64,000 bases of DNA from a virus (IMGVR_UViG_3300010399_000003:48853-112852); one strand, 5' to 3'; positions 2,809 through 36,183 are shown, numbered from the stretch's first letter. The notes: generated by a model from the letters alone, not told the origin. Numbers and translations are program-made.

Positions 2809-3242
2809 TATTTTTCGTCAAAATTCAAACGCACAGCCAATCGCCGAAGCATATCGTGCTGAGCCTCGTTAATCGGTCCTTCCAAATACTTAGGTCCAGT
2901 TCCAGGAGTCGTCCACGAAATCGGATGTCCATTTTCCATCGCGGTAATCCACGACGGTGGCGAATGATCAGAAAGATGTTCGTGAACTGCAATTGCATAT
3001 TCACTGGCTGCGCCGCCGTAGGACATCGTCACAGTGAAATTGTCGCCCTCTTGAACTGGTTTCGAAACCATACCGCTCGCACGCAACGTTCCGCCATCCA
3101 TAGCGACCGGACAGCGACGTTTCGATTCCGTCATGATTTCTTGCGCTTCTTGATACAATGCAGCCTTGACTCGCTGTGGAGCTTCTCGTGCGATTTTTCG
3201 CACAGTTGAACGCATTGCCTCAAGACCGCGCCACTTAATCAT
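2808..3242 (-). CDS. HK97 gp10-like head-tail joining component
   Basis: 144 aa. Position and size. Start overlaps the upstream stop. Confidence 0.3.
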   Translation of the reverse strand: MIKWRGLEAMRSTVRKIAREAPQRVKAALYQEAQEIMTESKRRCPVAMDGGTLRASGMVSKPVQEGDNFTVTMSYGGAASEYAIAVHEHLSDHSPPSWITAMENGHPISWTTPGTGPKYLEGPINEAQHDMLRRLAVRLNFDEK

Positions 3243-4471
3243 ACGGTCGCTGCTTCTTGTTGTGCCAGCACGTATTGAATGGCTTCAGCAAAATCTTTTC
3301 CAATGCTCGCCCAGCGAAAACGATCTTGCTTGACTAACTCCAAACCAGCTTTAGACAATTCAGCTCGTTTCTCTTTATCGTTGTACAGAGTATCGAGTGC
3401 TGTAATGAATGCGTCCTTATCCGGCACGCCGCCAATCACATTCACATATGGCATGCCGATTGCAATGTTGGAACACGGAATTTGTATTGCAGCATCGGCA
3501 GTCAATTCACCGAGTGCCGCCCAGTTCGGTACGATCTGTGGAACACCGCACGCCATTCCTTCAAAAGTGGTCAGTCCGAAACCCTCGCCCTGAGTCGTCG
3601 AAATTTGCACATCGAAACAATTGTATGTGTCGCGCATGTGCTGTTCCGAAACGCCATACCAAACAGGTGGTTCCATGAATGCCAGTTTAGCAAGCACGCC
3701 ATAGTAACGAGCAAGCTGCTTCACGTCAACGCCAGCTTCTCCGGTTGGCGCCGCATGCAAATACAAGAATGCATCGCTGATCTTCTTGGACTTGATCCAT
3801 TCAGCAAAATATTGAATAGTTAAATCCCAACGTTTCCGTGGCTGATTGCGGTTCACATTTCCAACAATGAATGCGTCATCCAAATCTTTTGGTAGCCGAC
3901 GGCTCCGACATTCCAGTCGATCCATCGGCCAATATGTGTCCAGATCAACACCCAAAGGAATGACCGTCGCAGGTCCGCGATATGATCCATTTCGCGCTTC
4001 ATCCATCGCGAATTTTGTCCAGAAGATAGCAAGCGAAATACCTTCAAGCCACGGCCCTTGAAAATTCTTCCCGTCAACAGCCAGCGATACGATCACCGGA
4101 ACCTTTTGGAACTTCGGTAACTTCTGCAACTCATCGATGTAGAACGGAATATTCCATCCGTCCTGCTGAATAACAATGACGTCAGGTTCAACGTGTGCAC
4201 ACATCCATGGCAATCGACCAACGCCAAAGAAATCGCCACCAGGAGCTGCTGCAAAAATTGGATACGGATACTCGTGCGGATCACCACGATAATTAATGCC
4301 CAAAACAGTCACGTCGTAAATCTTGTGCAGTGTCTCCAGCGTTTTATGAGTCGCCAGAGCGAAACCACTCGGACATCCGGCATCTCCAATCCACAGCAAC
4401 TTCTTCTTCATACGTTGTGTCCCAACAGCGCGATGACCTCTGGACGCCAAACGATTTGATCGGCCGTCCAT
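3239..4471 (-). CDS. Glycosyltransferase, GT-B fold (GT4-like)
   Basis: 410 aa. GT4-type motif ...TTQGEGFGLTTFEGMACGVPQIV... Confidence 0.65.
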   Translation of the reverse strand: MDGRSNRLASRGHRAVGTQRMKKKLLWIGDAGCPSGFALATHKTLETLHKIYDVTVLGINYRGDPHEYPYPIFAAAPGGDFFGVGRLPWMCAHVEPDVIVIQQDGWNIPFYIDELQKLPKFQKVPVIVSLAVDGKNFQGPWLEGISLAIFWTKFAMDEARNGSYRGPATVIPLGVDLDTYWPMDRLECRSRRLPKDLDDAFIVGNVNRNQPRKRWDLTIQYFAEWIKSKKISDAFLYLHAAPTGEAGVDVKQLARYYGVLAKLAFMEPPVWYGVSEQHMRDTYNCFDVQISTTQGEGFGLTTFEGMACGVPQIVPNWAALGELTADAAIQIPCSNIAIGMPYVNVIGGVPDKDAFITALDTLYNDKEKRAELSKAGLELVKQDRFRWASIGKDFAEAIQYVLAQQEAATV

Positions 4472-17207: not shown

Positions 17208-18251
17208 TTACGCGAGCGTTCCGACAACGATTCCGCTGTTTCCGTTGTAGTCCGAACGGACCCGCGGAATCATGATCGCCATCACAAGGTTGTGAATGGT
17301 GAATCCGTCGAGTGACGTATACGGAATGACCGTCGGCGGCTGGCCATTGATCACTTCGATGACGTCCGACGTCATCTGAACCAATGCCACGTTGTTCGCC
17401 GGCATCATGTCGGTCACGCGAATTCGCAGATTGCGGCCACCGAATACCATTCCCTGCAACCGCGCGAGGATGGAATCGTTGCCGTTCGCCTTGAAGTCGG
17501 TGTTCATCGCGTTGCCGACGTTCGTTCCGACATACAGATTGTACGGACCGAACTTCTGATCTCCCTGCAGCTTCGCAGTCATCGCCAGAACTTCCGCCAT
17601 GACCGTAGTGCCGACCGGCGCGGTGACCCACGCGGCCAAGGTCAGTGACTGAGTGTTGGCGTTCGGTGCGTTGAGCAGTCCGGGTGCCGAATAGCCAGCA
17701 TCGACCAGCGGCTGTCCGTCCAGCGTCGTCGCGCCGTTGATGGCCGCGTCCTCGATGGCTTCGTTGACCGCACGGGTGCACTGCTTGATCAGGGCGGTGT
17801 CGAGCGGCATGCCAACCCGCTGCGACATTTTGAGGGTCCGGATGTCGATTTCGAACTGGTCGGTTGTGAGATAGATCGGCGTGCGGCCGGGCAGCAAGCT
17901 GATCATCTTGTTTTCGCCACGAGCCGATGGCGTCATCGTGCGCTGCGCCGCGCCGACCTTGTTGGTCTTGTTCCACTCGAGCTGCGTCACGCTGAGTGGA
18001 TCGGATAGCGGATAGACCAGCCCTTCAGCGAGCAAGTCCGCGACGAACGTCAGACGCTGCAGCCCGACTTCGACCACGGCTTTGTCGATGGCAATCTGCG
18101 CGCGATCCGATAAGGGAGCGAGCGCACGGAAGCCGGACCTCCGCATTGCCGGAACCGACAGTTCACCAGTCTCTTCCAATGCGCGGAGAAATGCACCCGA
18201 GAGATTCGCATTCCCCTTTGCGGTTGACCGCATTGTATCGAACATTTCCAA
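17208..18251 (-). CDS. Major capsid protein (lambda gpE-like)
   Basis: 347 aa. Immediately downstream of a decoration-size gene, in the lambda D-E order. Confidence 0.6.
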   Translation of the reverse strand: MEMFDTMRSTAKGNANLSGAFLRALEETGELSVPAMRRSGFRALAPLSDRAQIAIDKAVVEVGLQRLTFVADLLAEGLVYPLSDPLSVTQLEWNKTNKVGAAQRTMTPSARGENKMISLLPGRTPIYLTTDQFEIDIRTLKMSQRVGMPLDTALIKQCTRAVNEAIEDAAINGATTLDGQPLVDAGYSAPGLLNAPNANTQSLTLAAWVTAPVGTTVMAEVLAMTAKLQGDQKFGPYNLYVGTNVGNAMNTDFKANGNDSILARLQGMVFGGRNLRIRVTDMMPANNVALVQMTSDVIEVINGQPPTVIPYTSLDGFTIHNLVMAIMIPRVRSDYNGNSGIVVGTLA

Positions 18252-27448: not shown

Positions 27449-30400
27449 TTATTTGATCTGCCATTTGTGGAATACCGCGGGATCAATGTACGATTTCAAG
27501 GCTTCCTTCTGAGTGTTGCCAAGCACGAGCGATACCCGATGGCCGACATACTCTGTGCGCTTCTTGTATTCCTTTGGCGTTTTCGGTTTCGGTAGCGTGT
27601 TCGCCACGCGAATCGCTTCGGCCGTGCCGACGTAGGTGCGGAAATCTTTCGGCGTGAATTCCTTCGTGATTGATTTCATGTAGGCGCGGACTCCAGCAGC
27701 ATCCGTATCGAACAGCCGTCCGCCTTTCGCGACTCGCGGTTTCAACATCTTCGCGAGTTCCTTATCCGACACCGTTAATTCGATACGTACACCCTTCTTG
27801 CCGATGAAATCGAAATCCACCCGATCGCCGGTGATCTTCACATGCCGTGCTTCGAGATTCGACGCACCATACGCTTTCTTCTCCGCTCGCGTATCGCCCT
27901 CGCCGCCGATTCGCATGCCGGTGCGTTCGATCAGGAAGAGAGCCGATGACGGTTCGGTTTCCTTCGGGGTCGTTCCGGCCATATCCTTCGCCATCTCAGC
28001 GCGGATACGCGGGAGCTCCTTGCGGAATGCCTTCAGTCGTTCGAACTTTTCCGCTGCGGCCCGTTCGGTATGCTTCGCCGAATAGAGGGATTGACGACGA
28101 CCCTTGGAATCTAAGCCGGTCGCTTGGAGTGGCGCATTCGGATTGTTGCTGATAAAAACGTTCGTCCACGCTGGCGGTATGCGCATCTTTTCCAATCGCT
28201 TCGCATCCCGCTCTGACGGTCGGTGCATCCCGGTCGGAACCATCTTACCCTTCGTCGGCCCTGATCCGCCAACGTGATGGAACCGTCCGGAGTGCCCAAA
28301 GTTTCCACTGCCTTTCCCACCAAGCGTCTGCAATTCTGATTCCTGCAGCGACAAATCCAACACTTGCTTTTCGCCGTCGGCTGGGCTGAACAAGACCTGA
28401 TTGATGACGGCAGTTTTTCCAACAAACTCGGTGTTTCCCGCATAACGCGCACCGAGCCCGGATTTGAGATACGCAATTGTCGCATGCGGATGATATTCCG
28501 GATACGTATCGGTGACGGAAAGTCCCTCGGAGATCAACGCGTTGAGTTCAACGAGCTCCGGGCTGTCGACTTCGACAAACAACACATCGTATTCGTCGCC
28601 CGCAAAGTAGCCCGTCTCACCAAACGTCAACGAGATCGGACCATATCCATCGGTAAATTCTTCCACGTCCGATACGTCGTCGGTATGAAGCCCGTATTTC
28701 ACCGTCACATGCGCATCAGTCTCGCGGCCTTCCTCCGCCAGTTCGGAATCAGGAATCCGGTCGCCTGCCGCGAACAATTGTTCCGCAATTTCCAACGGCA
28801 ACGGTGCCTGCACTGATGAAAACTCGTGCGGTCCGGCCATCGCACTCCGCGGTTCGTAATCCGGCGTCTCAAAATCCGGATCTGTATGAATGACCCGGAT
28901 CCCATCCTCCCCCGGATAGTACAGGTAAATGTTACCGTCGGTATCCGGCGTCAATTTCGAGAGGTGCTCGCCTGACACGTCGACGGCTTTCCCTGTGGAC
29001 GGATAAAACTGGAACTCGAAATCGTCGACGTAGGGATTGAGCGCCGGATTGTCGGGATCACCCTCCTCGCCCGCCAGTTCCGGGTCGTCGGCTGCCACGT
29101 CTTTCAAATTGCTATGAATCACCTGTTGGAAAATGCTACGATCGAAGATCACGCCGCGTCCTTCGGCCGTCGGAGCACCAAACAACGCCGTGCCGCTCTG
29201 CTCCGCTGCATCCAGCAATTGCTGCGTCGTATAACCAACCCCGGTCTCCGGGTCGATGGCGCCACTGCCGCCAGATCCGCCAATCTGACCAGGACGACCT
29301 GCGTGACCATGATCACCAGATCCCTTGCCACCCATTCCTTTGAATTGCGGAAGTTTAATGTTGGTTTTCGAAACGTGCGAAGAAGGAATCGCAGCTTTCG
29401 TGTAGACAACGAGTGCTTTGTCTCCCTTGTTCACATCGCGAACATATTCTTTCGCACCAGCCAACGACATTTCATAACCAGGATTGTACTCATCTTTTAT
29501 GTCAAAAAATTCCGGATCCAATCGAAATTTCAATCCTTTGGTTTTCACCGCGACAACAGCATTTCCTGGCAAGGCAATATCTGACGAATAAATTTCGTCA
29601 GGATCATTCGACAAATGGATCCCACGTGTTTGCCCTTCGAGATTTGAACGATCTTGACGCAACTTCAATCCGTGTTTCAAAATTGATGGTACATTGCGCT
29701 TAATCGTGATGTGATACAACGTATCCGGAATCTTCAGTTCTTTCAGAACATCCGGATGATTCAACAATCGATCCGCTTGCGTATGATAACCAATTGTTGA
29801 ACCACCAACTTTCCCCGGACGACCACCGTGCCCGTAATTGCCAGACCCTTTGCCACCGAGCGTCAGGATCTCATCGATTCGCGCCGAGTCACCGGCTTCG
29901 ACCGCCTCTTCCAACGCACGAAGTGTTGATTGCAACTTGAGCGGATCGGAAACACCGCTGATGTTTTCCAAAATCCGGTCAATCATCTGCACGTCGCCGT
30001 CACTGAGCGACTTCTCCAACGACTTGATGACCGCCTCGAGATCGTCGGTCGGTAACGTGCCTGGCTCCACACCGCTTACCACTGCCGCGATATCGTCGGT
30101 CGGCGGAGGTAATGCACGAGGCGGCACTTCCGAGACCGTTGGTAAGGCACCAGGAGCTCCTTCCGTGCCCGGCGCACCCGGCTTCGCTGGATCGGTGACT
30201 GGCGTACGTTCCTCGGGTGGTAGCGGCTTGAACCCATACCAAACCCTGCGGATCTCATCGTCGGTAAAGATCGTCCGGCCCATGATCTTGTTGACCATGG
30301 CCCATTTCTGTGCACCATCCGCCTTGAAAGATTCGGTATCCAACTCGCTGCCCGGCTTCAAACCAAACCATTTCTGTCGAATCTCGTCGCGGCTGAAGAT

Positions 30401-31711
30401 CGTTTGCTTCGCCGTCGCATTGACACTCGCCCACTGCGATGCACCCGCCGATTTCTCCGTCTCGGTGAGGTTCTGGATGACCGGCCACGCGACATCGTAT
30501 TTCGTCGGCTTCGGCAAGTAACCGTATCGGATGAGTCGATCAACCAATGGCCGAATGATGAACGGCATCGCATAGCTGGTTCGCCGATCATTCACCTGCG
30601 TGTTCCAATTGTCGGCGTCCTGTCCGGATGCGAGCTGCCCCATTTCCGACCCAATCAGGATCCGTTTCGGAATGCCTTTCGAACCTGCGATTTGCGTCAG
30701 GATAGCATCGGCCGGCGGACCGAAATTTGCCGTATCGCTCCCCAGAGGCGTGACAGTGACTCCGCGCGTGCGTAACCACCGCGTGATACCGTTGGCATAT
30801 TCCTCCGACTGCGTGCGCAAATTCTCGATCGCCGCCTTGGCATCTGGCAACGCCATATCCTTCGCGATATCCAGGTGCATACCCTGATTCGCGCGCAGGA
30901 AAAAGGCCTCGGCTCCGCCACCAGTCACCTTGTCGAGGTCATCCAGCAGATTCCAGACCGACTCCAACGTCGGCGTGCCGTAGACGTCATCGTTCAAACA
31001 GCCTTCGGCTACATGAATGATTCGAGACCAATGAATTTTCTTCTGCAAATCTGGAGAAGACAGTTCCGTCCGTTTGAGCTGATACCACAGTGGCAATCCA
31101 AATCGCGCACTGCGGATATTGGTCTCAAATTCGAGAATCGAACAGTCGGCGTCCCACATCGGACCACGCAGCCGCGTGTTCGCACCGCCCGGTCCGCCAC
31201 CACCGCTGAACGGACTCAGGTACAACAACGATTTTGCCGTCTCGTCGCCACGTGGTAATTCGGTATCCAGTGCGCCAGGCGCACCAATCAGCAACACCGC
31301 ATACGTGCTGAGCCCCGCGAGGATATCCACTCGTTGCAGCGTCGCCCAGATCTTCAGTCTGAGTTCGAGATCCAACCACGCCTGCTCGAATTCGGTGATG
31401 TTCGTCGGATCTTCGTCCTCGTACAGCTTGATCCCGCCCCGCCAAGTGGCTTTCGGGTAGGCTTCGACGATGCGCTTGGCCAACCCACCACGACGGTAGC
31501 GTTCCTCATAGTCCGAATATCCAAGTACGCGATCATAGCCGAAGATCTCGTAGAGGTCCCTCGCCCCTCTAAACGAGATCCCGGCCTGCCGCATGAACTG
31601 GAGCCGATCAAGCAAGACGCTGGCAGCAGCCCGAATTTCCATGACCTCCGTCACGCCATCCATCGGCGGAATATCGTGGAGTTCATGGCCGTTCCCAGTT
31701 TCTGGCATCAT
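27449..31711 (-). CDS. Portal protein fused to cargo domains (DarT-like ADP-ribosyltransferase, 2H phosphoesterase, topoisomerase IB); three linker motifs
   Basis: 1420 aa. Portal-like N-terminus. LYHITIKRNVPSILKHGL (DarT/DUF4433-like). HVTVKYG...HATIAYL (2H). C-terminal IPPAWT...FTPKDFRTY...LGNTQKEALKSYIDP (Topo IB). Confidence 0.6.
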   Translation of the reverse strand: MMPETGNGHELHDIPPMDGVTEVMEIRAAASVLLDRLQFMRQAGISFRGARDLYEIFGYDRVLGYSDYEERYRRGGLAKRIVEAYPKATWRGGIKLYEDEDPTNITEFEQAWLDLELRLKIWATLQRVDILAGLSTYAVLLIGAPGALDTELPRGDETAKSLLYLSPFSGGGGPGGANTRLRGPMWDADCSILEFETNIRSARFGLPLWYQLKRTELSSPDLQKKIHWSRIIHVAEGCLNDDVYGTPTLESVWNLLDDLDKVTGGGAEAFFLRANQGMHLDIAKDMALPDAKAAIENLRTQSEEYANGITRWLRTRGVTVTPLGSDTANFGPPADAILTQIAGSKGIPKRILIGSEMGQLASGQDADNWNTQVNDRRTSYAMPFIIRPLVDRLIRYGYLPKPTKYDVAWPVIQNLTETEKSAGASQWASVNATAKQTIFSRDEIRQKWFGLKPGSELDTESFKADGAQKWAMVNKIMGRTIFTDDEIRRVWYGFKPLPPEERTPVTDPAKPGAPGTEGAPGALPTVSEVPPRALPPPTDDIAAVVSGVEPGTLPTDDLEAVIKSLEKSLSDGDVQMIDRILENISGVSDPLKLQSTLRALEEAVEAGDSARIDEILTLGGKGSGNYGHGGRPGKVGGSTIGYHTQADRLLNHPDVLKELKIPDTLYHITIKRNVPSILKHGLKLRQDRSNLEGQTRGIHLSNDPDEIYSSDIALPGNAVVAVKTKGLKFRLDPEFFDIKDEYNPGYEMSLAGAKEYVRDVNKGDKALVVYTKAAIPSSHVSKTNIKLPQFKGMGGKGSGDHGHAGRPGQIGGSGGSGAIDPETGVGYTTQQLLDAAEQSGTALFGAPTAEGRGVIFDRSIFQQVIHSNLKDVAADDPELAGEEGDPDNPALNPYVDDFEFQFYPSTGKAVDVSGEHLSKLTPDTDGNIYLYYPGEDGIRVIHTDPDFETPDYEPRSAMAGPHEFSSVQAPLPLEIAEQLFAAGDRIPDSELAEEGRETDAHVTVKYGLHTDDVSDVEEFTDGYGPISLTFGETGYFAGDEYDVLFVEVDSPELVELNALISEGLSVTDTYPEYHPHATIAYLKSGLGARYAGNTEFVGKTAVINQVLFSPADGEKQVLDLSLQESELQTLGGKGSGNFGHSGRFHHVGGSGPTKGKMVPTGMHRPSERDAKRLEKMRIPPAWTNVFISNNPNAPLQATGLDSKGRRQSLYSAKHTERAAAEKFERLKAFRKELPRIRAEMAKDMAGTTPKETEPSSALFLIERTGMRIGGEGDTRAEKKAYGASNLEARHVKITGDRVDFDFIGKKGVRIELTVSDKELAKMLKPRVAKGGRLFDTDAAGVRAYMKSITKEFTPKDFRTYVGTAEAIRVANTLPKPKTPKEYKKRTEYVGHRVSLVLGNTQKEALKSYIDPAVFHKWQIK
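28258..28325 (-). repeat. Linker motif, copy 6 (GGKGSGNFGHSGRFHHVGGS; degenerate)
   Basis: Checked by direct translation. Confidence 0.75.
29281..29340 (-). repeat. Linker motif, copy 7 (GGKGSGDHGHAGRPGQIGGS)
   Basis: Checked by direct translation. Confidence 0.8.
29801..29860 (-). repeat. Linker motif, copy 8 (GGKGSGNYGHGGRPGKVGGS)
   Basis: Checked by direct translation. Confidence 0.8.
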
Positions 31712-34572: not shown

Positions 34573-36183
34573 TCACCATGATACGAACGCATCCTCCTGC
34601 TCAGGAGGCAGTGGTGCATACGCAATGAGCAGGGAATCCGCACGATTGGGCGAAGGCCCATCGCCATACTTCACAACAGTCTGTCCTTTGCTGTTAGGCT
34701 CCCACCTGATAGTGAGCAGCTGCTCTGCCAGCTCAGGGTCCTCATGCTCTGGTGCTATGTCGATAGCACCCTCTTCGAAGATAGTGCGTATGGACCACCA
34801 TATCTGACTAAGCATATTCGCAAACACTTCCCTCAGTGCTCGACTCCCGCACTTAGGGCAGTACTTGTCGAATGTGACGATGGTCTTGTCCCACTCGTGG
34901 TGACATGCAAGGCAGCCAAGAACAGTGCTCTTCTGATTCACCTGTATGGGGTGTATGGGCAGCTCGAGTTCCTTGCCTCTATCGACCACTCCACGCCCCA
35001 CCCCAATGTAGTCCACCTTGGCCAGCGTAGCACCATATCGGGAGTCCTGCAATGTTTGTATCAGCTTGCCCGTAGTCTTCATGGTGTCGGGCTGGCGCTC
35101 TTCGTACAGAATGCGAAAGACTCGCCCTCTACGCCACCCGCAGCATGAGGGGTCTCCTCCCTCAGAGGCACCTACGTCAAGACTTAATTCAATCGGCTCT
35201 CCTGCAGGTAGGCGGCGCTCCTGTGCTGCCCGGATCCACGTCAGCGGAATGAGCGAACCAGTGGAGTTCTGTACAGGGAATTGACCGAGAATCTTGGATT
35301 GCCAGAATGGATGAGTGTCCTCCAGCTTTCCGTCTGGAGGAGGGAAGCATCTGTTCAGCGCAATGCGTCCCTGGCCAAGACACATTTCGCAGATCGCTGA
35401 ATTCTCGCCTCCGCAGCTGGGGCACTCCTGTCCCCATGACCACGTCGGTGCCCATTTCTTTCGCTTTTCTTCGACGTAGGTTTTGCCGATGAGCTGATCG
35501 AGAACTCGCTTCGGCATTTCTTCGCCGGTGAAATTCGGCGAATCAAAAGCACTGATGCTGATGCTGTGCCAACTGGAATTCGGCTTGCAATTTTCGAAGA
35601 ACTCGCCACTCGGATCGTCCGGGTTGCCGATTGCAAGCATCTTCGAATTGTCGTTCGCGATCAGCGAGTCGGCTGCTTCCCACAGATTTCCGCGGATACC
35701 GTTGGCCTCATCAAAAATCACGAGGACGTATGGCGCATGAATTCCCTGAAATGCGGCAGGATCATACTCGTCTGGCTTTCGTCCAAATCCGACGAGCTCA
35801 TCTCGAGTCCCGACTCGCATCAACCACTCAGTCTGATTGACACGTCCCGGCAATCCTCCTCGCGCATGGACTCGTCCAATTTCACGCCAAAGAATTGCCC
35901 GGACCTGTGAACCAGTGGGTGCTGACGTCACGACGAAGGCGTCGCCCGGAGTGTGGGAGTCAAGCCACCACCCAACGAGCAACGCCGCGTCGTAAGACTT
36001 CCCGATTTCGTGACAGGACATGACGTTGACGCGCCGATGCGTCGCCAACGCTGCGTTGATCTTCTGTTGACCAGTCCAGAGGGTATCGCCGAGTCGCGCC
36101 TTCGCCCACGCGTTCGGATCCACACGGAACCGACGCTTGGTGAATTCAGCTTCGATAGCTGCTAATTCGGCGACGAGGTCCAT
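34573..36183 (-). CDS. Terminase large subunit
   Basis: ATPase motifs (...MSCHEIGKS..., VLVIFDEANGI) plus a nuclease-like C-terminus with zinc-ribbon insertions. Confidence 0.7.
   Translation of the reverse strand: MDLVAELAAIEAEFTKRRFRVDPNAWAKARLGDTLWTGQQKINAALATHRRVNVMSCHEIGKSYDAALLVGWWLDSHTPGDAFVVTSAPTGSQVRAILWREIGRVHARGGLPGRVNQTEWLMRVGTRDELVGFGRKPDEYDPAAFQGIHAPYVLVIFDEANGIRGNLWEAADSLIANDNSKMLAIGNPDDPSGEFFENCKPNSSWHSISISAFDSPNFTGEEMPKRVLDQLIGKTYVEEKRKKWAPTWSWGQECPSCGGENSAICEMCLGQGRIALNRCFPPPDGKLEDTHPFWQSKILGQFPVQNSTGSLIPLTWIRAAQERRLPAGEPIELSLDVGASEGGDPSCCGWRRGRVFRILYEERQPDTMKTTGKLIQTLQDSRYGATLAKVDYIGVGRGVVDRGKELELPIHPIQVNQKSTVLGCLACHHEWDKTIVTFDKYCPKCGSRALREVFANMLSQIWWSIRTIFEEGAIDIAPEHEDPELAEQLLTIRWEPNSKGQTVVKYGDGPSPNRADSLLIAYAPLPPEQEDAFVSW

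Follow-up and report, generated by a model that had tools for sequence, protein, structure and literature searches.

A large portal fusion in the head gene module

We analyzed a stretch of viral DNA of 64,000 nucleotides (IMGVR_UViG_3300010399_000003:48853-112852; here referred to as the window) and in particular one large open reading frame (ORF) within its head gene module. The ORF spans positions 27449..31711 on the minus strand and is a single uninterrupted frame of 1420 codons with an ATG start, exactly as stated in an earlier annotation made by a model from the sequence alone (here named the original prediction). The encoded protein of 1420 amino acids (aa) is predicted to consist of a phage portal, followed by an ADP-ribosyltransferase (ART)-fold module, a module without family match (module X), a 2H phosphoesterase and a type IB topoisomerase (TopoIB). 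Along the protein the following features were distinguished:

30452..31711 (-), aa 1-420, portal core (PF06381, PHROG 146, portals of StAshley and Sf11)
30218..30451 (-), aa 421-498, tandem duplicated C-terminal segment of the portal (W..VN....IF...EIR..W(F/Y)G.KP twice)
29861..30217 (-), aa 499-617, proline-rich spacer with two copies of the helix motif L.(A/S)(V/L)E..(D/G)....ID.IL (from the sequence)
29798..29860 (-), aa 618-638, linker 1, LGGKGSGNYGHGGRPGKVGGS (regular-expression scan, DNA alignment)
29336..29797 (-), aa 639-792, ART-fold module with H667, H699 and E734, nearest to the NAD+ lobe of Tpt1/KptA
29273..29335 (-), aa 793-813, linker 2, MGGKGSGDHGHAGRPGQIGGS (regular-expression scan, DNA alignment)
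28832..29272 (-), aa 814-960, module X, no family match
28325..28831 (-), aa 961-1129, 2H phosphoesterase with H1001-x-T and H1076-x-T (PF13563 above the cut-off)
28262..28324 (-), aa 1130-1150, linker 3, LGGKGSGNFGHSGRFHHVGGS, with a degenerate GRPG (regular-expression scan, DNA alignment)
27452..28261 (-), aa 1151-1420, TopoIB with N-terminal and catalytic domain (PF21338, PF01028, PDB entry 2f4q)

The unusual length alone could point to a mis-assembled or frame-shifted gene fusion, or to a decaying pseudogene. However, an identical 1420-aa protein was present in two independent assemblies, ENA ERZ27256670 (112,870 bp) and Logan SRR6185503 (112,759 bp), which makes an assembly or frameshift artefact very unlikely. 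Furthermore, more than 120 relatives share the same design of portal and cargo, all catalytic motifs are intact and the neighbouring genes overlap by a few bases in the manner of an operon. An artefact of either kind is therefore hardly credible to us.

The portal domain

Pfam matches were judged throughout against the gathering scores (cut-offs) of the families. Residues 195-426 matched Phage_portal_3 (PF06381, DUF1073 type) with E=6e-24 and 84.8 bits against a cut-off of 33.8, and residues 48-461 matched PHROG 146 (E=2e-53). The Sf11 portal (PDB 9yin_A) was recognized with E=1.5e-15, and the domain was 36% identical to the plain portal of 500 aa of Brevundimonas phage StAshley. On these sequence matches aa 1 to approximately 460 are a true portal, in line with the original prediction, which had named a separate portal as the finding that would speak against it. 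No second portal was present among the scanned ORFs of the window, head module included.

The C-terminal part of the portal contains the duplicated segment of about 35 aa that had been pointed out before: aa 421-455 and aa 464-498 are identical at 17 of 35 positions. A search with the full-length protein yielded 129 metagenomic proteins of 780-1731 aa, all carrying a PF06381 portal at the N-terminus. Among these relatives the C-terminal segment occurs in one or two copies, and the helix motif L.(A/S)(V/L)E..(D/G)....ID.IL sits either before the first linker or at the end of the protein.

The type IB topoisomerase

The vaccinia-type signature proposed for the C-terminus was borne out by two Pfam domains, Top1B_N_bact (PF21338; E=1e-11, 44.3 bits against 27) and Topoisom_I (PF01028; E=3e-27, 95.9 bits against 23.7). 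The Deinococcus enzyme TopIB (PDB 2f4q) aligned over the whole domain with E=4e-25, the match covering residues 38-298 of the 346 in its chain. R1267, K1305, R1358, N1399 and Y1408 fell in this HMMER alignment on positions 137, 174, 239, 280 and 289 of 2f4q, which we take to be the catalytic pentad of D. radiodurans TopIB. Judged by these residues (R-K-R-N-Y), the module is a complete TopoIB of the bacterial/poxvirus type that looks catalytically intact. It shares the two-domain architecture and the R-K-R-N-Y set, aligned on 2f4q, with the Deinococcus and vaccinia topoisomerases. In contrast to these enzymes, it is here predicted to form the C-terminal end of a polyprotein that begins with a phage portal.

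TopoIB was found in 3/120 portal fusions, namely the window protein and the relatives P0003 and P0005. Both relatives retain the catalytic motifs, including that of the Tyr, with a His in place of the Asn in P0005. A search with TopoIB alone gave 315 homologues at E<1e-10, mostly of 260-470 aa, and [ST]Y[IV]xP was present in 97 of 120 TopoIB homologues. The catalytic Tyr, on whose conservation the assignment had been made to depend, is thus kept in homologues. Some of the homologues are fused to InPase (a polyvalent-protein domain), ART or NUDIX. In three others (P0185, P0194 and P0198) a short leader is followed by the same linker and then by TopoIB, and on the contigs L007 and L008 such leader-linker-TopoIB genes lie between the portal-cargo fusion and the MuF gene.

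The ADP-ribosyltransferase-fold module

The motif LYHITIKRNVPSILKHGL, on which a DarT-like enzyme had been proposed, is present at aa 665-682. Its best match was KptA (FLYHGTPRRNLPSILKEGLK) rather than DarT. A word-index protein search with the ART module of 155 aa gave no match; an exhaustive HMMER search recovered 64 homologues, some of them within proteins of 2000-4400 aa. In their alignment one His is invariant, and the Tyr of G-V-Y-L-T (His699 in the window copy) as well as the Glu of L-D-P-E are nearly invariant. As read from this alignment, the family has an H-Y-E-type pattern as in ARTs of the PARP and DarT types.

AlphaFold modelled the module from the single sequence with a pLDDT of 31 and, when given the alignment of homologues, confidently with a pLDDT of 90.6. 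In a Foldseek search with this model 18 Tpt1/KptA structures ranked first (E 2e-4 to 3e-3, probability 1.0), followed by DarT with E=0.03 and a probability of 0.66. Pfam scans of the individual family members matched PTS_2-RNA in 28 of 39, PARP in 14, DUF7002 in 14 and DarT in 5, all below the gathering scores. The module reached 11.6 bits for DarT against a cut-off of 22.5, and 17 bits for Tpt1/KptA against 26. A Macro domain, as in the DarT partner DarG, was absent from the ORF and from the scanned neighbours.

The ART part of the original prediction was retained: the fold is that of an ART, its first strand carries the His of the NAD+ site, and an acidic catalytic residue is present. DarT identity was rejected because of the score below the Pfam cut-off and the better rank of Tpt1/KptA in Foldseek. 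An orthodox Tpt1 was rejected as well; the module is below that Pfam cut-off and lacks the N-terminal RNA lobe. It resembles Tpt1/KptA in its fold, the nearest one, and in the shared motif LYH(G/I)T..N.PSILK.GL...(V/I)HLS, but differs from them by the missing RNA-binding lobe and by the H-Y-E pattern of the wider family. The structural model places the module in a small, so far undescribed family of ART-fold domains that comes closest to the NAD+ lobe of KptA.

Module X and the 2H phosphoesterase

Between the ART-fold module and the 2H phosphoesterase lies a further module which the original prediction had missed, although its linker-delimited modules were otherwise found again. For this module X neither a Pfam scan of aa 826-975 alone nor Pfam, PHROG and NCBIfam scans of the whole protein gave a match. 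The sole homologue seen was aa 877-993 of the metagenomic protein P0013.

The two H-x-T motifs HVTVKYG (H1001) and HATIAYL (H1076), from which a 2H phosphoesterase had been deduced, lie in a domain that matches 2_5_RNA_ligase2 (PF13563) with E=6e-10 and 39.8 bits against a cut-off of 27, in support of that assignment. In the family alignment (A3) the second His does not vary, and conservation of the first reaches at least 90%. The family profile matched Acb1 best in the PDB (9q2g, E=2e-4), then YjcG and then the plant Appr>p CPDase. The module shares the two H-x-T motifs with Acb1 and LigT-type enzymes. In contrast to a genuine Acb1, the similarity is weak and the score for the Acb1 family PF23474 is below the cut-off (17.1 bits against 27). 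One portal region of a Pseudomonas phage is already labelled 'Acb1-like' in its GenBank annotation.

Exchange of modules among portal fusions

The 2H phosphoesterase is the commonest cargo of the family and was found in 67/120 proteins by local phmmer searches. Other cargo were MuF (22), zeta toxin/AAA_33 (12), Pterin_4a (7), flavoprotein oxidoreductase (6), PI3/PI4-kinase-like (4) and an Alt/VIP2-type ART (1). In 18/120 relatives the ParB-like module, encoded separately in the window, is built into the portal polyprotein, and 7/120 have the pterin-dehydratase module of the neighbouring 701-aa ORF there. The same modules are thus fused to the portal in some relatives and present as separate genes in others, from which we conclude that modules interchange between carriers. 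The portal-MuF fusions P0110, P0112 and P0115 additionally carry an intein (PF14890).

A recurrent linker peptide

Three copies of LGGxGSGxxGHxGRxxxxGGS were found in the portal ORF by a regular-expression scan. In total, the window contained eight in-frame copies of this linker of about 20 aa, all on the minus strand and spread over four ORFs of the head module. The portal ORF and the 701-aa ORF have three each, the ParB-like ORF has one, and the 789-aa ORF has one immediately behind its DUF2213 domain. The original prediction had recognized the linkers of the portal ORF and missed their recurrence in the three further ORFs. Their consensus is h-x-x-[LMA]-GG-x-GSG-xx-GH-x-GRPG-xx-GGS. In the locus of one relative (L003) 11 copies were present in 5 ORFs.

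Since the linker recurs eight times in frame in four neighbouring ORFs, we do not regard it as a product of chance. The eight DNA copies vary freely at third codon positions while the codons for Gly, His, Arg and Pro are kept, which indicates that selection acts on the peptide. For the same reason, recent DNA duplications or recombination cassettes were rejected as the source of the copies.

Relatives carry two further types at the same positions as the linker described above (type A), namely (L/A)GDxxGHPFHGNQ(W/Y) (type B) and LGGPGSGP (type C). Single genomes contain them alongside type A, and the core common to the linkers is hydrophobic-x-x-(L/M/A)-G-G-x-G-S-G. Such junction variants were seen in the loci L005 and L006 and in the proteins P0004, P0018, P0028, P0186 and P0253, and (E/H)D(E/Q)xGR(F/W) is possibly a further junction peptide.

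Each of the 17 family fusions of at least 1200 aa contained at least two linkers (17/17), none of the 120 portal-family proteins had a linker within its N-terminal 480 aa, and linker number increased with protein length (Spearman 0.44, p=4e-7, 120 proteins). A literature search with the motif strings over 8 million papers found no description of the linker. A tblastn search with the linker peptide gave no match, probably owing to low-complexity masking.

Judged by this pattern, the linker behaves as a conserved junction or processing element and is most likely a proteolytic site. Alternatively, the linkers might be functional peptides, i.e. flexible connectors, DNA-binding motifs of the AT-hook kind or docking motifs for scaffold or portal that would hold the cargo to the packaged genome, with the non-portal polyproteins ejected intact. 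The selection on the peptide would fit such a role, as would the GRPG core, which we take to resemble the G-R-P core of AT-hooks, and no matching protease was found in the searches for a MuF zincin and a DUF2213 protease described below. However, GRP is missing from types B (GDxxGHPFHGNQW) and C (LGGPGSGP), which nonetheless take the same places as type A and occur beside it in the same genomes; the common core hydrophobic-x-x-(L/A)-GG-x-GSG is more like a protease site; and the part bound to the portal still could not exit the capsid. We consider functional peptides of this kind improbable as an explanation of the linkers.

Neighbouring cargo genes and candidate proteases

The ORFs around the portal fusion that bear on cargo and maturation are as follows:

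34573..36183 (-), large terminase, upstream of the portal (phrog_2, E=5e-27)
26228..27424 (-), ParB-like ORF with a Cys-motif leader, a linker (nt 27152-27208), a low-complexity stretch and a DdrB/ParB-like domain (DGHHRW)
24126..26231 (-), 701-aa polyprotein with linkers at nt 25731-25787, 25098-25154 and 24642-24698
22663..24147 (-), MuF (SPP1 gp7-like) head protein (PF04233 and PHROG matches)
18767..21136 (-), DUF2213 protein (Pa193 gp24-like) with a linker (nt 20276-20332) and an Ala/Glu/Lys-rich, scaffold-like C-terminus (PF09979, phrog_760)
17208..18251 (-), major capsid protein, HK97-like, DUF6260 (Pfam and PHROG matches)

The 701-aa polyprotein is composed, in this order, of a module similar to pterin-4a-carbinolamine dehydratase (E=5e-11), an unknown second module of 190 aa, a KptA/PARP-like ART with FHGT... 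and an Alt/VIP2-like ART of the R-S-E type, with linkers between them. Together with the one in the portal ORF, the head operon thus encodes three ART-fold modules. Both the ParB-like and the 701-aa ORF start with a common Cys motif, (Q)TCP(T/D)CQ(D/H)WI, and the ParB-like ORF has a second CPEC directly before its linker. The Cys-motif leader may form a zinc ribbon or may target the protein to the capsid.

Two neighbouring products were considered as the enzyme that might cut the linkers. The MuF ORF ends in a zincin-like signature, HEIGHH...EGFAEAF (nt 22756-22896, minus strand), with weak Pfam matches to Peptidase_Mx and ATLF (E=0.03-0.05) and no match in the PDB.

The DUF2213 ORF of 789 aa lies directly upstream of the capsid gene and is a candidate protease-scaffold. 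The same arrangement of DUF2213, linker and Ala/Glu/Lys-rich region was found in L003, which has the motifs VVLGHP, EVSVGAF and DHLAFLP in common with the window. DUF2213 ORFs were also called in L006, L007 and L008, which makes the domain a constant part of these loci, and the copy in L006 contains linker motifs. For the homologue gp24 of Pa193 a role as scaffold has been put forward, possibly with cleavage once assembly is complete (PMC11456595), and one GenBank record names a DUF2213 homologue prohead protease.

Genome context

The gene content of the window clearly shows its phage origin. Its source is probably a complete phage genome of about 113 kb, approximately 49 kb of which falls outside the window. 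The order TerL, portal fusion, cargo ORFs, MuF, DUF2213-scaffold and major capsid protein was conserved between the window and the relatives L003, L006, L007 and L008. Internal promoters or terminators in excess, which could have hinted at separate expression of the modules, were not found. In L005 (5258-7423) Terminase_6N and Terminase_6C are encoded by separate ORFs with an ORF of 214 aa between them; this split may be due to an intein, to a homing-endonuclease insertion or to gene calling.

A megablast search with 19.5 kb of the head region gave no match among GenBank phages. When the whole 1420-aa protein was compared with GenBank phages by tblastn, the portal domain alone was matched, which indicates that no cultured phage has this architecture.

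Further genes of the window encode a tail-fibre-like protein, a primase-polymerase, a family A DNA polymerase and one tRNA-Val. A glycosyltransferase-like ORF (3239-4471, minus strand; phrog_2170, E=4e-31) is located among the tail-end genes. Near 42 kb the sign of the GC skew flips (window approximately 41000-46500), and the genes switch from the minus strand (structural, primase) to the plus strand (replication). This region, which may be one of divergent transcription or an origin, includes:

46012-46086, tRNA-Val

Comparison with known systems

Fusions of portal or MuF proteins to 2H, PBECR, InPase, ART and Nudix domains have been proposed to be head-packaged, injected effectors (PMC5512222, PMC9503650). 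The original prediction presented the fusion without reference to these described portal-effector fusions. The ORF resembles the polyvalent proteins of PMC5512222 in its several effector domains (2H, ART and, in the operon, ParB-like), its location among head genes and its fusion to the portal. It joins portal, ART, X, 2H and TopoIB in one polypeptide within the head operon and, judged by these domains, belongs to the known class of portal-fused polyvalent effectors. Mass spectrometry has detected one polyvalent protein in the virions of phi24B (bioRxiv 10.64898/2026.04.10.717836).

Three differences from PMC5512222 were noted. TopoIB is absent from its domain list, the word 'topoisomerase' occurring in the reference list alone, and the words 'linker', 'glycine' and 'low-complexity' do not occur in its text. 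Processing of polyvalent proteins by a zincin peptidase has been proposed (Iyer et al. 2017, 2022; PMC5512222, PMC9503650). The MPTase peptidase, which is ubiquitous in the model of PMC5512222, is here weak and inconsistent. No description of TopoIB as virion cargo was found in the literature searched. As far as we found, two features are undescribed: a complete TopoIB as putative virion cargo, recurrent in the clade, and a junction peptide common to the portal, the polyproteins neighbouring MuF and the scaffold-like protein.

A second comparison is offered by phage T4. Alt and the internal proteins of T4, an ADP-ribosyltransferase among these enzymes, enter the prohead, are cleaved at a conserved short sequence and reach the host with the DNA. 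The T4 capsid-targeting sequence is removed by the prohead protease gp21 at the site LxE. The leader-plus-linker ORFs of the present locus resemble this combination of targeting sequence and cleavage site. In contrast to T4, the cargo would here be loaded in 12 copies through its covalent link with the portal, and the predicted site is a Gly/His/Arg motif of 20 aa instead of LxE.

Release of the modules or action at the portal

The domain identities, catalytic motifs, recurring linkers and shuffled modules described above lead us to favour, with fair but by no means full confidence, a portal-anchored polyvalent effector polyprotein whose modules would be released at the linkers and ejected with the DNA. 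What we infer for this protein, namely its place in the capsid, its cleavage, its ejection and its targets, can be outlined as follows. The C-terminus of a portal faces the capsid interior, so 12 copies of each module would be loaded without a separate targeting signal. The portal ring, once built into the procapsid, would carry these copies inside, and the proline-rich spacer would hold the cargo away from the channel. During head maturation or after ejection the linkers would be cut, and the freed modules would leave the capsid together with the DNA. In the host, the 2H phosphoesterase would probably act like Acb1 and destroy immune signals made of cyclic or 2'-5' oligonucleotides, or else trim RNA ends. 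The ART might modify nucleic acid (an end) or protein in an NAD+-dependent manner, and TopoIB might relax supercoils of incoming or host DNA, as the poxvirus virion enzyme does. In vaccinia, the topoisomerase travels in the core of the virion and supports early transcription.

The original prediction had the enzymes acting while covalently held at the exit channel. Modules that stay on the portal could act on the passing DNA; TopoIB, for example, might relieve twist at the inner mouth of the channel while the DNA is packaged or ejected. In favour of this, the fusion is in frame without internal stop, TopoIB appears to be complete as an enzyme that clamps DNA and has all five residues of the pentad, and the spacer would let it reach the DNA. 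Since a TopoIB requires no cofactor, it could also work in the capsid. The ART, in contrast, needs NAD+, which is not expected there, and the zeta-toxin kinases, flavoproteins and pterin dehydratase of relatives have no plausible role at a portal. Only 3/120 portal fusions, moreover, include TopoIB, which other head modules encode as a gene of its own that starts with leader and linker, and a simple tether would need no conserved linkers. Because of the separate leader-linker genes in relatives, the variable cargo directed to the cytoplasm and the junction-like linker, release and ejection is preferred, and we consider permanently tethered enzymes rather unlikely.

Several observations weigh against release at the linkers. 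Linker 3 reads GRFHH and has lost the GRPG core, and module X and the 2H phosphoesterase are joined without a canonical linker. Linkers that stayed uncut would trap the portal-bound cargo in the capsid, and neither the window nor the loci of relatives yielded a canonical prohead protease. The zincin-like HExxH module is absent from the MuF genes of the linker-rich loci L003 and L006; together with the missing PDB match and the weak Pfam matches this weakens the MuF zincin as the enzyme that cuts the linkers. Sequence searches with the DUF2213 domain revealed no similarity to any protease and thus gave no support for it as one.

The position of the DUF2213 protein, which is that of a protease-scaffold, and the linker directly after its domain nevertheless make it a candidate. 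More speculatively, the linker of about 20 aa together with types B and C might constitute the recognition code of an unrecognised system of cargo loading and release that would extend over a large clade of uncultured phages, and in which the DUF2213 domain, as candidate head-maturation protease, would cut every linker; we put this forward as a tentative idea that is more doubtful than release as such. If true, any enzyme behind a linker, be it on the portal, MuF, the scaffold or a short leader, would be taken into the capsid and reach the host as a free protein, and TopoIB would be a virion-delivered topoisomerase, the phage parallel of the poxvirus core enzyme.

Implications

Effectors packaged in the head encounter host defences before any other phage protein, and the loading and separation of polyvalent proteins have so far only been predicted. 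The locus offers a simple, testable design for both: covalent loading on the portal would fix the copy number at 12, and the short conserved junction peptide could be the long-sought processing signal. The linker could also serve the engineered delivery of cargo by phage capsids. With a complete TopoIB added to the candidate injected phage enzymes, our analysis suggests that phages, like poxviruses, may bring a DNA-relaxing activity for the earliest steps of infection.

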